Source: Candidatus Zambryskiibacteriota bacterium
GTDB lineage: Bacteria > Patescibacteriota > Minisyncoccia > Phycocordibacterales > WO2-35-19
Reading direction: 5' to 3'
Assembly (NCBI GenBank): GCA_003233455.1
Contig: QILQ01000043.1
Span: 442 to 64,441, forward strand
Length of the DNA stretch: 64,000 bases
Positions 7,439 to 60,372 of this stretch are shown here, one piece after another. The notes below the pieces were generated by a model that had not been told where the DNA came from, did no database searches, and worked only from the letters and a program-made list of their open reading frames with translations. Made by a program: the position numbers and the translations under genes. The stretch's first letter is position 1, and each line of letters opens with the position of its first letter.

Positions 7439-7476
7439 TCCCTCTCCTTAGTAAGGAGAGGGGAAGGGGTGAGGTT
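7439..7476. repeat. Palindromic repeat CCCTCTCCTTAGTAAGGAGAGGGG + GGGTGAGGTT
   Basis: Member of window-wide GGGTGAGG palindromic family; between clpP and tig. Confidence 0.6.
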
Positions 7477-7477
7477 A

Positions 7478-8551
7478 TTAACTCTCCAAGAGTTTCAAAA
7501 CTGCAGAATTAAGAAGAATAGTAGCTACATAAATACGAGCGTTTACTTCAGAAGCTTCTGGATAATGCTTCATAACTTCTTTAACTTCATTTTCTAGGAT
7601 ATATTTATCTGGAGATAATTTTTCAACTTCGGCAATTTTATTAAAAATAAGTTGAATTTTTGCTTTTTTCTCTGAGCTTTCTTTAAAATCTTTTTTTAAT
7701 TCTTCCTCGGTTTTTTTAGCTTGAGCTAGATAATCATCGTATTTATGACCCGCTTTTTTTATATCATCTTTCATTTGAGCTAACGATTTTTCAGTCTCGC
7801 TCATAACTAAAATATCCGGCAAATCTATTTTTGTATTTTTAAGAAGCTCTCCCATTATACCGGCTCTTTTTTTCTCTATGTTTTTGGCTTTTTTTTCTTC
7901 TATTATGTTTTGTTTAATTTTTTCTTTAAGGTCATTTAAATTTTTAAAATTGCCGGCGGCTTTTGCCAATTCATCATCAAGTTTTGGTAAATTCTCTTCT
8001 TTTTCCAAATCCAATTCAGGGTGGTTGTGAGTATTTTGATTTTTGTTTTTTTGATGCCAATCAAAATGAGCTTTATTTTTCCTTATTTGTAGAAGCACTT
8101 CAGCTACTTCTTTATCGGTAACTTCTAAATCTTCAGCACTTATTTTTACTGAGGATATAGCTTTAGTGGCTATTTTTTTATAATCGGGTAATTCAAATAA
8201 AGGTGCAATAGCAAAAATCGCTTTAAATTCAACCGGATTTCCCAAAGCTAATTTAGTAATGGAGATTTGAGGCTGACCTATTATATCTAATTTTTCCTGT
8301 TCTACAATTTTAGAAAAATGCTCTTTTAAAAGTATATCAGTTGCTTCTTCAAGAATTTTACTTTCGCCAATTTTTTCCACTACGATATTTTCCGGTATAT
8401 GACCTTTTCTAAATCCAGAAACTTCTAAAGAGGAGGCAAACATCTCTACCGCTTTTTTACGGGCGGTCAACAAAAAATCGGCAGGCAGAAATACTTCCAA
8501 TTCCATTTCCGATTTTGGCAATTTTTTTATTTTGATTTGATATTCCACCAA
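7478..8551 (-). CDS. tig: Trigger factor (short form, no obvious PPIase domain)
   Basis: N-terminal ribosome-binding domain with GFRKGHIP motif; upstream of clpP on same strand (tig-clpP synteny). Confidence 0.7.
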   Translation of the reverse strand: MVEYQIKIKKLPKSEMELEVFLPADFLLTARKKAVEMFASSLEVSGFRKGHIPENIVVEKIGESKILEEATDILLKEHFSKIVEQEKLDIIGQPQISITKLALGNPVEFKAIFAIAPLFELPDYKKIATKAISSVKISAEDLEVTDKEVAEVLLQIRKNKAHFDWHQKNKNQNTHNHPELDLEKEENLPKLDDELAKAAGNFKNLNDLKEKIKQNIIEEKKAKNIEKKRAGIMGELLKNTKIDLPDILVMSETEKSLAQMKDDIKKAGHKYDDYLAQAKKTEEELKKDFKESSEKKAKIQLIFNKIAEVEKLSPDKYILENEVKEVMKHYPEASEVNARIYVATILLNSAVLKLLES

Positions 8552-8589
8552 GCTAGTTTAGCTTAAAACTCTTTTTGAAGCAAACCTCA

Positions 8590-8745
8590 CCCCTAATTTT
8601 TATCTTCTATAATAACTTCACCTAGCCCCTCTCCTACTTACCACCATCTCTATTATTTACCACCTCACCTCTCTCCTACCTACTATTTTACCACCTCACC
8701 CCTAGCCCCTCTCCTTAGTAAGGAGAGGGGAAGCGAGAAACTCAA
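8590..8745. repeat. Cluster of degenerate CACCTCACC / CCCCTCTCC repeats ending in a perfect palindrome CCCCTCTCCTTAGTAAGGAGAGGGG
   Basis: Four to five tandem degenerate units visible directly. Confidence 0.55.
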
Positions 8746-8765
8746 ACTTTGTAATAAATTTATAT

Positions 8766-9074
8766 TTATTGCAACTCTGCCTTTATGGCGGCAGCTCCTT
8801 GGTCAAGATTGTCCAAGTTGGTAGCGTTTAAATCTTTTTCTATTGAATTCAAATTATCAGAACTGCTTTGCTGGTTTAAAGATTTGGTAACGGTATCAGT
8901 TTGTTCTGTTGGCGCGACATACGATTTTTGAGATGATCTCGCCCTCAAGAAATACAACCCGCCGATTATAATAAGAGCTAATATAATAATAACCGCAATT
9001 AACGGTCCAACCGATTTTTTTTCCACTTGCTCCGATATTGGAGGCATTTGATTTGGATTATTAAAAGTATCCAT
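8766..9074 (-). CDS. Hypothetical small membrane-anchored protein
   Basis: One TM segment, Ser/Asn-rich tail. Confidence 0.35.
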   Translation of the reverse strand: MDTFNNPNQMPPISEQVEKKSVGPLIAVIIILALIIIGGLYFLRARSSQKSYVAPTEQTDTVTKSLNQQSSSDNLNSIEKDLNATNLDNLDQGAAAIKAELQ

Positions 9075-9099
9075 TTTAATTTAAGTTAGTTTATAAATT

Positions 9100-57304: not shown

Positions 57305-57308
57305 TAAT

Positions 57309-57839
57309 ATGAGATTGAAAATTGAAAATTTTAAATTGAAAATTCCTGCTAAGCAGGCAGGTATAACTCTGTTTATAGTAATCGTCATTATGAGCATCTT
57401 GCTTCTTATAAGTTTCGCGATAGTCAATATTACTTTGAAAGCTACTCTCTTTTCTTCTTCTGGCAGAGATTCTCAATACGCTTTTTATGCGGCAGATAGC
57501 GGTATAGAATGTGCTATTTATTGGGATTCCAGGTTTAATCCAAGCAAATTTGCCACTTCCACTTCAGGCTCTCCTATAAGTTGTAATAATATAGCTATTT
57601 CAAATGGTCAAACTATTCCCGGCACTACCACTTTAACTCTAATCGGCGGAGGCGGTAATGCTAATCCAACCAGTATTTTTTACTTTAATATGAATCAAGG
57701 TTCGGACCCAGAACCTTATTGCGCTATTGTGACGGTAACTAAAAATACGGACGGTAGCACTTATATTAAATCTCGCGGTTATAATACTTGTGACCCTTCT
57801 AATCCAAGGAGAGTAGAGAGAGGTATTGAATTGTATTAA
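57309..57839 (+). CDS. Minor pilin (PilX-like)
   Basis: QAGITLFIVIVIMSILLL. Confidence 0.5.
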   Translation: MRLKIENFKLKIPAKQAGITLFIVIVIMSILLLISFAIVNITLKATLFSSSGRDSQYAFYAADSGIECAIYWDSRFNPSKFATSTSGSPISCNNIAISNGQTIPGTTTLTLIGGGGNANPTSIFYFNMNQGSDPEPYCAIVTVTKNTDGSTYIKSRGYNTCDPSNPRRVERGIELY

Positions 57840-57914
57840 AATAAACTCATCTTGTCCCTCTTTTGTTGTAAAAAAGGAACCGAGCAAAGCGAGAGGGGGT
57901 GAGTTATAAAAATT

Positions 57915-59990
57915 ATGAACATCAAAAAATTAAAAAAAAGAGCTGAAAATTTGCGTAAAATAATAGAAAAACACAGTTATTTATATTATGTGGTAGATAA
58001 ACCAAAAATAGAAGATAGTGTTTATGATTCTCTAGTGGAGGAATTAATCAAGTTAGAAGAAAAATTTCCTGTTTTAAAAACAGCTACAAGTCCAACTCAA
58101 AGAGTTGGAGGAGAGCCTCTTAAAAAATTTAAAAAAGTAAAACATAAAATACCGCAATGGTCTTTCAATGACGCTTTTAACGAGGAAGATATGTTTAAAT
58201 TTGATGAGAGAGTAAAAAAAATGCTTGAAAAAGAATTTGGAAAGAAAATCTCTTTAGCATATGTTTGCGAGCTTAAAATAGACGGTTTAAAAATTGTGCT
58301 TGAATACAAAAAAGGTGAATTGCTAACAGCTGTTACCAGAGGCGATGGTAGAATTGGCGAGGATGTCACGAATAATATAAAAACCATAACTTCCATACCT
58401 TTAAAACTTTTAAAACCGGTAGATATAATTGTTGAAGGAGAAATATGGTTGGGTAAAAATAATTTTGAAAAATTAAATAAAGAAAGAAAAAGAAGAGGAG
58501 AACCGCTTTTTTCTAATCCCAGAAATGCCGCTGCCGGTGCTATTCGCCAACTTGACCCTAAAATTGCAGCTGAAAGAAAATTAGATAGTTTTATTTATGA
58601 TGTTGCAATGTTGCCAAGGACTGTCCTTAGGGGCGGGGCAGTTCAAGGACAGTCCTTGGCAACTCAAGTTAAAGAATTAGAATATTTACAAGACCTTGGT
58701 TTTAAGGTGAATAAAAATTTTAAATTATGTTCAAATATAAATGAAGTAATTAGCTACTGGAAATCTTGGCACCTGCCTACTGGTGGGCAAAAAAGTAAAA
58801 AAGATAAGCAAGATTATTTAATTGATGGAGTGGTAGTTAAAATAAATGAAATAAAATATCAAAATATTTTAGGTTTTACCAGCAAAGCACCCCGTTTTGC
58901 TATTGCTTTTAAGTTTAAAGCGGAGCAAGTGACTACGGTGGTGGAAGATATTGTTTTGCAAATTGGCAGAACTGGAGCACTTACTCCGGTGGCTCATTTG
59001 CGTCCGGTATTAGTCGCCGGCTCTGTTGTTTCGCGAGCCACGCTTCATAACGAAGATGAAATTAAAAGATTGGATGTGAGAGTGGGGGATACTATTATTC
59101 TTCAAAAAGCCGGAGATGTTATTCCGGATATTATTTCAGTGGTTAAAGAAATGCGGACCGGCGGAGAGAAAAAATTTATTTGGCCGAAATTGGTGGTGGA
59201 TTGTGGCGGAAATGGCGAAATAGAAAGGATACCAGGTCAAGCGGTTTGGCGATGCAAAAACAAAAATTCCTTTATCCAAAAAAAACGCAAACTTTATCAT
59301 TTTACCAGTAAAATAGCTTTTAATATTGAAGGTTTGGGTCCAAAAATTATAGACGCTCTTTTGGAGGCTAAACTTATCTCTAATTATGAAGATATTTTTA
59401 CTTTAAAAAGAGGTGATTTGCTCGCTTTACCCCGTTTTGCCGAGAAATCAGTTGATAATTTGCTTAAAGCGATTGAAAAAGCCAGAGAAATAACCTTATC
59501 TCGCTTTATTATTTCTCTTTCAATACCAAATGTTGGAGAAGAAACCGCAATTTTACTGGCTCAAAATTTTGGCTCTATTGAAAAAATAATCAATTTAAAA
59601 ATTGAAGAATTGGAAAAAATAGAAGGAATAGGACCAATTGTAACAAAGTCAATTATTGATTGGTTTGCCGATAAAAATAATCAAAAAACTTTAAATAATT
59701 TACTTAAACATATAAAAATAATTCCTCAAAATTTTTCTATAAAAAACTTAGAAAGACAAGGGAAATTAGAAGGAAAAACTTTTGTATTAACCGGCACTTT
59801 AAATAAAATTAGTAGAGATGAAGCTAAAGAAAAAATTCGTTCTCTTGGCGGAAGTATTTCAAGTTCTGTTTCCAAAGAAACCGATTATGTGGTGGTTGGC
59901 GAAAATCCGGGGTCTAAATACAAAAAAGCGGAAGAAATTGGAGTAGAGATTTTGAATGAGGAAAAATTTAAGGAAATTTTAAATATGTAA
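57915..59990 (+). CDS. ligA: NAD-dependent DNA ligase
   Basis: KxDG adenylation motif (ELKIDGL), OB fold, Zn-finger Cys cluster, HhH, BRCT. Confidence 0.9.
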
Positions 59991-60019
59991 TATATTCTTT
60001 TTTGTGCTATATTTTTTAT

Positions 60020-60328
60020 ATGATTTCTAAAGAAGAAATTAAAAAATTAGCTGATTTGGTTAGAATAAATATTGCGGATGAAGAAGCGGAAAATTTGCGA
60101 GGTGAAATAAGCGATATTTTAGATTATGTTGGACAAGTTAAATCTATAACTGAAAATAATAAAGAGAGACAAAATCCTCTTCTTGTTGTAAAAAGGGGGC
60201 AGGGGGATGTTATAAATGTAATGAGAGAAGATGAAAATCTAATTGAATCAGATACTCACAGCAAAAATTTAATTGCTGAATTTCCAAACAAAGAGAGAGA
60301 TTATTTAAAAGTAAAGAAAATATTATAA
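60020..60328 (+). CDS. gatC: Asp/Glu-tRNA(Asn/Gln) amidotransferase subunit C
   Basis: ISKEEIKKLADLVRINIADEEAENLRGEISDILDYV; upstream of gatA. Confidence 0.8.
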   Translation: MISKEEIKKLADLVRINIADEEAENLRGEISDILDYVGQVKSITENNKERQNPLLVVKRGQGDVINVMREDENLIESDTHSKNLIAEFPNKERDYLKVKKIL

Positions 60329-60372
60329 TTTCCCCTCTCCTGCATTTAGGAGAGGGGCTAGGGGTGAGGTTA
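60329..60372. repeat. Palindromic repeat CCCCTCTCCTGCATTTAGGAGAGGGG + GGGGTGAGGTT
   Basis: Family member between gatC and gatA. Confidence 0.6.

Follow-up and report, generated by a model that had tools for sequence, protein, structure and literature searches.

A Patescibacteria version of the BoxC-type triplex repeats and its association with DUF559 gene cassettes

The intrastrand-triplex motif TM_ECO of Escherichia coli is the BoxC repeat of the 1990s and the PIT element of Hoyne and Maher (PMC4666352). It has the sequence CCCTCTCCC-TGT-GGGAGAGGG-CCG-GGGTGAGGG, and its single strand was found by circular dichroism (CD) and nuclear magnetic resonance (NMR) to form a stable triplex in vitro; the E. 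coli copies were described as exclusively intergenic, their local variability between strains was raised, and triplex motifs are abundant in cyanobacteria (PMC4666352). Here we analyse a dispersed repeat family in a stretch of 64,000 nucleotides from a Candidatus Zambryskiibacteriota bacterium (contig QILQ01000043.1, positions 442 to 64,441 of the forward strand), which as a whole we call the window and whose own numbering is used below. The repeats of the window are the Patescibacteria (Candidate Phyla Radiation, CPR) version of the G/C-rich class II intrastrand-triplex motif BoxC/PIT/TM_ECO. This class has been described before, and the repeat family by itself is ordinary; its copies are, however, physically associated with DUF559 genes, and we consider it rather probable that the dispersed copies are the ends, solo derivatives and decayed remnants of selfish cassettes of about 0.5 kb carrying a DUF559 (Vsr/EDxHD-like) gene.

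In common with BoxC/PIT/TM_ECO (Bergler 1992; Hoyne and Maher 2000, 2002; Holder et al. 2015, PMC4666352), the window family is built of a pyrimidine arm, a loop, a purine arm, a short loop and a mirror-image G/T arm, has nearly the same core (CCCTCTCC ... GGAGAGGG ... GGGTGAGG) with 8-nt cores common to both, and is multi-copy, present on both strands, sometimes arranged as inverted pairs and variable between related genomes. Unlike TM_ECO, it (i) has 10-nt arms ending in T/A (CCCCTCTCCT / AGGAGAGGGG / GGGGTGAGGT), (ii) resides in a Patescibacteria genome of 32% GC, (iii) also occurs in frame within coding sequences, whereas the E. coli copies were reported to be always intergenic, and (iv) can be tied to DUF559 cassettes, whereas no mobility genes were reported near TM_ECO. 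The strict TM_ECO pattern CCCTCNCCC-N3-6-GGGNGAGGG-N3-GGGNGAGGG has no match on either strand of the window, and the family is thus a sister variant rather than TM_ECO itself; a relaxed 8-nt core (CCTCNCC...GGNGAGG...GGNGAGG) matches four window copies.

Two further families bear a more distant resemblance. The small dispersed repeats (SDRs) of heterocystous cyanobacteria, said to have been described by Elhai et al. in 2008, are reportedly hairpin units of 21-27 nt that are nested, intergenic and different between relatives; to this extent they may resemble the units of the window, which are likewise hairpin-forming and of this length, nested, intergenic and variable among relatives. The Rickettsia palindromic elements (RPEs), ascribed to Ogata et al. 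in 2000, are said to be 100-150 bp long, restricted to their lineage and inserted in frame in genes of a reduced genome. Both they and the window family insert in frame without destroying genes of a reduced genome, but the sequences are unrelated and no mirror arm has been described for RPEs. The in-frame insertions in essential-looking genes reported below recall the RPE phenomenon in another lineage.

The common form of the unit in the window is a core CCCCTCTCCT-N3-6-AGGAGAGGGG with a flank GGGGTGAGGT/ACCTCACCCC; the G/T-rich arm follows the purine arm at a distance of 2-3 nt or beyond a small inserted hairpin. The exact motif CCCCTCTCCT-N(3-10)-AGGAGAGGGG is present three times (at 8706, 11171 and 60332) and was not found in any of 100 shuffles, and with at most one mismatch the purine arm AGGAGAGGGG occurs 16 times (1.5 expected) and the flank GGGGTGAGGT 15 times (1.0 expected). 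A homopyrimidine arm, a loop of 3-6 nt and a complementary homopurine arm are intact in seven copies (4821, 7439, 8706, 11171, 30272, 60332 and 61117). Folded as DNA hairpins, the stems yield -8.9 to -19.2 kcal/mol with z-scores of -2.3 to -6.1; in nearest-neighbour models the third arm takes no part in pairing. The surrounding genes include ribosomal protein genes, tig-clpP, nusA, gatCA and pilin-like genes, and the closest homologues of the β-CASP protein encoded in the window are labelled Candidatus Zambryskibacteria, Paceibacterota or Patescibacteria. A scan with Rfam at gathering and E-value thresholds assigned no family to any repeat copy, and a literature search with the literal 10-mers returned only unrelated papers.

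A preliminary description of this DNA had listed a family of palindromes with a flank as GC-rich islands lying between genes in every orientation, and had likened it to REP/MITE elements. All of the listed sites are indeed present, the copies do stand out against a background of 27-37% GC, and tandem, convergent, divergent, intra-operon and intragenic placements are confirmed; additional copies lie at 4644-4675, 28892-28906, 57891-57905 and possibly 61094-61137. The palindrome family is real, but the flank is a mirror-image third arm and not just an outer palindrome arm; likewise, the comparison with REP and MITE holds for a dispersed, selfish-looking family that is not made of terminators, but not in the sense of a strict REP nor, as it seems, of a classical MITE.

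The mirror relation is exact in the common form of the unit: GGGGTGAGGT read from 3' to 5' is TGGAGTGGGG, which matches the purine arm AGGAGAGGGG position by position if G corresponds to G and A to A or T. This is the rule of the antiparallel purine-motif (class II) triplex, with the triplets G*G-C, A*A-T and T*A-T, and to judge from its sequence the unit is a hairpin plus a putative triplex-forming strand rather than a nested palindrome. When 227 perfect pyrimidine-loop-purine hairpins were collected from the window and every fetched locus, 171 of them had a mismatch-free (8/8) mirror of the final 8 nucleotides of the stem within 25 nt, compared with 16 for an unmirrored control. The third arm moreover changes with the stem: a stem's own mirror was the best or tied best for 21 of 32 stem types, with a mean score of 7.36 versus 6.38 when paired with other stems, and none of 20000 permutations reached the observed value, which was also the case when the 26 non-canonical stem types were considered separately. 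Covarying pairs of stem and third arm are AAGAGGGGG / GGGGGAGTT, AAGAGAGGGG / GGGGTGAGTT, AAGAGAAGGGG / GGGGATGAGTT, AGGGGAGGG / GGGTGGGGT and AAGGAGGGGG / GGGGGTGGTT.

Template copying cannot produce a mirror relation. On single-stranded DNA the third arm could fold back into the major groove of the hairpin to form G*G-C and T/A*A-T triplets, and such a triplex may also arise inside the cell. Published support for the triplex has until now consisted of in-vitro biophysics on one sequence, and the covariation over 32 stem variants adds comparative evidence for selection on the triplex-compatible geometry itself. Other accounts of the flank were rejected: a G-quadruplex needs G-tracts alone and does not predict a position-by-position mirror covariation of A with T/A; the flank cannot be a Watson-Crick partner of the pyrimidine arm since the two are mirror images and not complementary; and nested self-insertion of the hairpin would yield arms in direct and not in mirror repeat. 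As a separate observation, other small GC-rich palindromes are nested in spacers and arms of elements at loci of relatives (L122 2725-2760; L123 11470-11530; L125 6575-6640; L126 6796-6860 and 7069-7130), an example being CCGCCCGAAACGCTGTTCAGGCGGGCGG within a left arm in L122. A related family with T in the purine arm (CCCCTCACCTT / AAGGTGAGGGG with GGGGTGGGGTC) was also seen, in which the mirror rule holds at only 9 of 11 positions.

Such units extend far beyond the window. A genome scan with one genome per species gave at least 120 loci, and the matches listed include many from Nostocales and further ones from Chloroflexota (including Dehalococcoidia and Ktedonobacterales), Bacteroidota, Ignavibacteria, Armatimonadota, several Patescibacteria lineages, Bosea and one Bathyarchaeia genome. 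Identical 10-mers occur in many phyla as well as in viral contigs, and among the matches listed the mirror arm lies within 30 nt in 123 of 145 copies, as opposed to 0.5% of random windows. In IMG/VR the core was found in 94 stretches, and the arm accompanies 79 of 105 copies.

All-against-all clustering of the open reading frames (ORFs) within 4 kb of 120 listed copies revealed no recurrent neighbour, transposase-like or other; DUF559 was missed by this approach because only three of the 120 listed loci carry it. The association emerged at loci of syntenic relatives, where a DUF559 gene (PF04480) lies between two repeat copies. All five DUF559 ORFs in the fetched loci are flanked on both sides, in the order mirror-arm complement, hairpin, 10-40 nt, ORF, 5-35 nt, hairpin and mirror arm. 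In E. coli K-12, ycjD is a DUF559 gene with its 3' end inside a BoxC-like hairpin, and TM_ECO copy number 9 lies 165 nt beyond ycjD, adjacent to a fragment duplicated from the 3' end of this gene. Our search of the literature, which was incomplete, brought up no link of DUF559 or YcjD to BoxC or triplex motifs, so that an earlier description may exist.

In order to guard against ascertainment bias, an independent sample of 80 DUF559 loci was drawn from metagenomes by protein similarity only, with a three-sequence alignment as the query. A G/C-rich pyrimidine-purine hairpin is present within 130 nt upstream of the DUF559 gene in 55 of 74 cases and within 130 nt downstream in 49 of 74; at least one side carries it in 60 of 68 loci and both sides in 35 of 68. 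The background in the same loci amounts to 25 hairpins in 207 kb (0.12 per kb), which corresponds to 0.021 expected per flank. The mirror arm accompanies 92 of the 127 DUF559-flanking hairpins, and the two stems of one cassette share their core at 18 of 40 loci, compared with 4.8 when partners are shuffled (maximum 11 in 2000). Two cassette architectures can be distinguished, with the mirror arms pointing either outward or, as in the palindromic TM pairs of E. coli, inward.

The DUF559 proteins themselves, named 'DUF559 domain-containing protein' in NCBIfam, resemble a known class of selfish nucleases. Glu, Asp, His and Asp (E, D, H, D) are invariant among six aligned sequences, and the DUF559 profile matches the PDB entries 3hrl (E 1e-34) and 3r3p (E 5e-5), the latter being the catalytic domain of the EDxHD homing endonuclease I-Bth0305I, a homologue of Vsr (PMC3239194). 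A survey of PD-(D/E)XK proteins grouped VSR, DUF559 and DUF2726 together (PMC3424549). EDxHD homing endonucleases of the I-Bth0305I type (PMC3239194) are encoded by selfish genes that spread by cutting gene-less alleles, and they have the nuclease fold and the E/D/H/D catalytic residues in common with DUF559. However, I-Bth0305I possesses N-terminal DNA-binding modules and belongs to a group I intron in phage recA, whereas the DUF559 proteins considered here are free-standing domains of about 115 residues encoded between structured repeats.

Comparison of orthologous sites reveals filled, solo and empty states. The gene block β-CASP-rny-clpP-tig-hypA-hypB-nusA is syntenic between the window and the loci L122-L126, L136 and L139. 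The clpP/tig spacer of the window comprises 122 nt and holds a solo composite (7394-7475); in L124 the same spacer of 642 nt contains a DUF559 cassette with three hairpins, and in L122, L123 and L126 it is devoid of a copy and 7-28 nt long. The tig/hypA spacer of the window comprises 217 nt with a degenerate cluster, while L122, L136 and L139 have a DUF559 cassette there (557-579 nt, two hairpins), L125 has a solo composite, and L124 and L126 have no copy. Two sites of the window are thus orthologous to sites that bear DUF559 in relatives: at a conserved site, a free-standing gene of a nuclease-like family is present or absent, and the presumed target sequence is kept in the gene-less alleles, as is the case for homing cassettes.

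The solo forms resemble the cassette ends in their details. The composite of L125 has the order ACCTCACCCC, promoter-like box, hairpin, 31 nt and GGGGGTGAGGT, and both 7388-7480 and the reverse complement of 23730-23820 of the window can be aligned with the 5' end that the cassette has in L136 and L139. There, ACCTCACCCC-TCTAGATTTTGGTATAAT-...-hairpin-TA-GGGGTGAGGTGGT is followed directly by the ATG of DUF559, and from this layout the module resembles an extended -10 promoter, with GAGGT as the likely ribosome-binding site. Moreover, the tail AAGCGAG after the hairpin at 8706 matches the 3' end of the L124 cassette.

Polymorphism of this type also affects coding sequences. The intact β-CASP gene of the window contains two repeat sites. 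At site 1 (about residue 427), about half of 60 homologues are insert-free (FVEKVAP-KKVFVIMGEP) and others contain 8-35 extra residues that are translated elements, for example, TSPPTPLLAKERGE, SPLLDAGEGK or PPLDQGREGK; site 2 (about residue 375) exhibits the same type of polymorphism. In L122 the site-1 copy retains its flank ACCTCACCCC intact and harbours another small palindrome within the left arm, and an RsmE-like methyltransferase of L125 and L136 likewise contains an in-frame copy. When genes are called on metagenome-assembled genomes, the repeats give rise to spurious peptides and to extensions at the N or C terminus.

If the dispersed copies do derive from DUF559 cassettes, the following cycle can be envisaged. 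A cassette of about 0.5 kb would consist of mirror-arm complement, hairpin, DUF559 gene, hairpin and mirror arm, with a promoter-like TGnTATAAT box at its 5' end and GAGGT of the mirror arm serving as the ribosome-binding site of DUF559. The encoded protein, having the Vsr/EDxHD fold, would nick or cut at or near a gene-less copy of the motif, and repair from a gene-bearing copy, with hairpin and mirror arms providing homology, would then install the cassette, so that DUF559 would drive its mobility. Recombination or replication slippage between the two flanking hairpins may subsequently remove the gene and leave a solo composite. Copies would persist and decay; neutral ones would be tolerated, including in-frame ones that encode part of a protein surface loop, and some could become ribosome-binding sites; from their position, this appears to have happened where GAGGT precedes the start codon of gatA by 7 nt and that of ligA by 9 nt. 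The best-supported reading for the source genome is that the repeats of the window survive there mainly as solo derivatives and decayed remnants.

Several findings weigh against a cassette origin. We know of no biochemical activity of DUF559, and neither a target-site duplication nor an exact insertion junction could be identified at the compared spacers, where a protein identity of only about 70-78% with the relatives makes these unreadable. The mirror arms do not have the same orientation in all cassettes, facing either outward or inward, and one simple mechanism must fit both; eight of 68 DUF559 genes lack a hairpin of this kind. Solo copies far outnumber gene-bearing ones (the three DUF559 genes in 120 listed genome loci), none of the 94 viral loci has a DUF559 gene, and neither a DUF559 gene nor a fragment of one is present within the 64-kb window. 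E. coli genomes without ycjD still have BoxC matches, which implies that copies persist without need of ycjD; megablast place counts are not reliable as a census of BoxC. The segment of ycjD and BoxC copies in the fabI-sapF region (L127 / L302) was found in 3346 of 5426 complete E. coli genomes; in the sampled genomes lacking ycjD (O157:H7 was inspected) the alternative allele is a TetR/RND efflux island and not a clean empty site, and the presence or absence of ycjD is hence confounded as a natural test. Finally, the E. coli copies gave no in-vivo dimethyl sulphate (DMS) footprint of a triplex, and Holder et al. found neither transposase or integrase remnants nor mobility genes near them (PMC4666352).

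The main rival is a function of the repeats at the level of the host. They would be structural DNA elements maintained by the host that, as proposed by Holder et al., modulate replication, recombination or genome plasticity, and DUF559 would merely exploit them as a selfish user of landing pads or regulatory hairpins. This would account well for three arms that are strongly conserved and covary across phyla, for the far greater number of solo than of gene-bearing copies and for the BoxC copies kept by ycjD-less E. coli genomes, and the in-vitro triplex, the polymerase blocking and the local instability that have been reported (PMC4666352) fit it likewise. However, positional or strand regularity is absent in the window, copies are missing at orthologous sites of close relatives and decay freely, some are inserted within coding sequences, and in E. 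coli no in-vivo triplex, promoter or terminator activity was found (PMC4666352). We regard such a host function of the family as rather unlikely, yet as worth serious consideration. It is quite improbable that the copies act as RNA hairpins, that is, as intrinsic terminators or as stabilisers of mRNA 3' or 5' ends, even though the hairpins are stable, occur at both ends of DUF559 transcripts and include one copy between the convergent genes rplK and dcd. Terminators were the alternative which the preliminary description itself had put forward for comparison, and the copies turn out not to be confined to 3' ends: besides rplK/dcd, they are found within the gatCA operon (gatC/gatA spacer) and the ribosomal protein operon (rplX/rplE spacer), in the divergent spacer of nusA and the cytochrome b-like gene, in the tandem tig/clpP spacer and within coding sequences. 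No copy is followed by a T-run, none is among the terminator-like sites called in a scan of 1-20000, and the E. coli PIT elements are without terminator activity, as cited in PMC4666352. An RNA hairpin moreover leaves the mirror arm and its covariation unexplained, and the mirror-arm complement on the far side lies upstream of the promoter-like box and would thus not be transcribed.

Short dispersed palindromes, and paired inverted copies around a single small gene, are also the layout of repetitive extragenic palindromes (REPs) and REPINs mobilised by a REP-associated tyrosine transposase (RAYT, of the Y1 HUH type), and short dispersed palindromes may as well be miniature inverted-repeat transposable elements (MITEs) of the classical kind derived from insertion sequences (ISs). 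The likeness of the DUF559 system to REPIN-RAYT (Bertels and Rainey 2011, PMC3116915; Di Nocera 2013, PMC3733652) is considerable, since in both a small gene lies between two inverted copies of a short structured repeat that forms single-strand hairpins and is also dispersed as many non-autonomous copies, and GTAG or TAG precedes the stem in some copies (4817-4820, 8703-8705). Yet the flanked gene belongs to DUF559, with its PD-(D/E)XK/Vsr (EDxHD) fold, and not to the Y1 transposases, the GTAG/CGTC tag (PMC3733652) is not conserved, other copies having CAG, CGGT, TTT or CAA instead, the mirror (triplex) arm is foreign to REPs, and the clustering around the 120 listed copies brought up no recurrent transposase-like ORF. 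No RAYT gene was seen flanked by the repeat, the ORFs of the window having been scanned only partly against Pfam. As regards MITEs, the termini are common to the DUF559 cassettes, but DUF559 does not belong to the known transposases, and a target-site duplication was neither seen nor readable at the junctions. Hence, an origin from RAYT-mobilised REPs or from IS-derived MITEs seems very improbable. Least convincing of all is the idea that the family consists of translation signals, in which purine arms act as Shine-Dalgarno sequences and pyrimidine arms mimic the anti-Shine-Dalgarno so as to tune downstream genes: the mirror-arm GAGGT does lie 3-9 nt 5' of the starts of gatA (7 nt), ligA (9 nt) and DUF559 of L136/L139 (3 nt), but most copies have no start codon after them on either strand (for example, 7466-7475, 30308-30317 and 8706-8730), some lie within coding sequences, and the mirror covariation follows the rule of the DNA triplex and not that of pairing with the ribosome.

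Returning to the cassette origin, it is tempting to speculate further. Possibly, though we propose this only tentatively, DUF559 and BoxC-type repeats form a widespread two-part selfish system, comparable with RAYT and REPIN, in which the nuclease would recognise the hairpin with its purine-motif triplex, rather than plain sequence, as terminal repeat and as target for homing or transposition, and which would span E. coli, Patescibacteria, Bacteroidota, cyanobacteria and possibly archaea. If this were true, it would explain the origin of the BoxC/PIT/TM repeats, for which a mechanism has been wanting since the 1990s, and would give DUF559 a function. The association with DUF559, which an independent sample bears out, already provides a testable candidate enzyme behind repeats that have lacked an account of their origin for three decades, and hints at what a domain family that is very large and of unknown function may do.

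The individual copies of the window differ widely in their preservation. Two lie on the minus strand within the β-CASP gene. At site 2, a degenerate copy (4644-4675) consists of AACTTCCCC, a mirror-arm complement, and the hairpin CCTTCTT-ACATT-AAGAGGG; its orthologues L122 2561 and L125 11136 are intact, with AAGAGGGGG and GGGGGAGTT. The in-frame copy at site 1 (4798-4861, about residues 427-447) comprises a decayed flank and spacer (4798-4820), the hairpin CCCTCTCCT-AGATGC-AGGAGAGGG (4821-4844) and an A-rich tail (4845-4861), and the Pfam RMMBL match of the protein is interrupted at residue 426. The composite of the tig/clpP spacer (7394-7475, plus strand) is made up of the mirror-arm complement ATCTCACCCC (7394-7403), the promoter-like ATCTAGATTTTAGTATAAT (7404-7422), the hairpin (7439-7463) and the mirror arm GGGGTGAGGT (7466-7475), with a mirror match of 10/10. 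Between tig and a hypothetical gene, the preliminary description had seen a tandem cluster at 8590-8745; what is found (8584-8737, minus strand) is a single intact hairpin (8706-8730) with three pyrimidine-arm or flank fragments rather than an array of full copies. In order, these parts are ACCTCACCCC (8584-8593), a lone pyrimidine arm (8626-8635), a degenerate flank and arm (8659-8677), ACCACCTCACCCC (8690-8702), the hairpin and the tail AAGCGAG (8731-8737), and the mirror match on the minus strand is 10/11. The divergent spacer between nusA and the cytochrome b-like gene holds a minus-strand copy (11163-11196; mirror match 7/10) with the partial flank ACCCCCAG (11163-11170) and the hairpin CCCCTCTCCT-AAATGC-AGGAGAGGGG (11171-11196).

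The copies reported earlier at 22790 and 23745 do exist, but only as half copies, with ACCTCACCCC, a spacer and the purine arm, and both are contained in a direct repeat of 91-115 nt. The former (22796-22826, minus strand) consists of ACCTCACCCC, the spacer TCGCTTCGCGTA and the purine arm GGAGAGGGG, the pyrimidine arm being missing, and lies downstream of rplS within the first copy of a direct repeat (D12). The latter is a composite lacking one stem arm (23736-23814, minus strand; also part of the inverted repeat I4), with ACCTCACCCC (23736-23745), the purine arm (23760-23769), the promoter-like module in reverse complement (23785-23803) and GGGTGAGGTG (23805-23814), and is located upstream of the minus-strand ORF 22894-23541. 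The direct repeat D12 (within 22727-23783) is perfect over 91 nt, or about 115 nt with one 2-nt indel, and brackets this ORF; its unit duplicates the last 16 nt of rplS, a spacer and half an element. The ORF encodes 215 residues with only faint similarity to HD/HDIG proteins and is downstream of the promoter-like module of 23736-23814, an arrangement that would fit the capture of another cargo gene by this type of cassette end.

Further along, the remnant AGGAGGGGGTGAGGT (28892-28906, plus strand), composed of purine and mirror arms, is directly followed by a TTGACA-17-TATAAT-like promoter. A full two-armed composite occupies the convergent rplK/dcd spacer (30260-30317, no strand assigned), with ACCTCACCTC (30260-30269), the hairpin (30272-30295; -19.2 kcal/mol, z -6.1), a spacer of about 11-13 nt and GGGGTGAGGT (30308-30317), and a mirror match of 9/10 on both sides. 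The site given earlier as 40097 is a copy, yet a divergent and weakly folding one (z -1.9): located in the rplX/rplE spacer of the ribosomal protein operon (40102-40133, minus strand), it reads CCCCACCTCAA, then CCCCTTCCC-AAAGA-GGAGGGG, the stop codon of rplX being at about 40095. The third arm is only partial at the copies 11171, 4821 and 40113. On the plus strand, the remnant GAGAGGGGGTGAGTT (57891-57905) lies 9 nt 5' of the ligA start codon and may have a Shine-Dalgarno role for ligA, and a canonical class II unit lies between the gatC stop and the gatA start (60332-60370; mirror match 10/10), with the hairpin (60332-60357), the loop CTA and the mirror arm GGGGTGAGGT (60361-60370). A possible copy in gatA (61094-61137, minus strand), with ACCTCACT and the hairpin CCTCTCCT-AATTT-AGGAGAGG and a mirror match of 7/8, is of uncertain membership.

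The window contains additional repeats and features apart from this family. An AT-rich direct repeat of 125 nt (D2; 37280-37404 and 39741-39865, 97% identical) immediately precedes rplV and rplX within the operon of ribosomal proteins, includes promoter sequences resembling TTGATTAGTATAAT and is distinct from the repeats studied here. A direct repeat of 64 nt (D19; 1849-1912 and 2792-2855, 88% identical) follows two adjacent genes and includes a TGGACG-17-TATAAT promoter-like site. A tRNA at 24712-24784 was detected by Rfam (51.6 bits) but not by ARAGORN, and 11322-12887 encodes a protein of 521 residues with cytochrome b N-terminal domains (Pfam E 1e-24); Patescibacteria are usually described as being without respiratory chains. 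An N-terminal pilin-like signal (KGFTLIELLVV...) recurs in four genes (D3/D5; 16644-16716, 50193-50265, 54225-54297 and 55586-55630) and is a matter of a protein family, not of a DNA repeat. Finally, the near-perfect 36-nt palindrome ACTATACAAATGGGACGATCGTCCCGTTTGTATAGT (I6) is present twice (19685-19720 and 41672-41707), the former copy being followed by a T-run and scored as terminator-like, and these palindromes, in contrast to the repeats studied here, look like genuine terminators.

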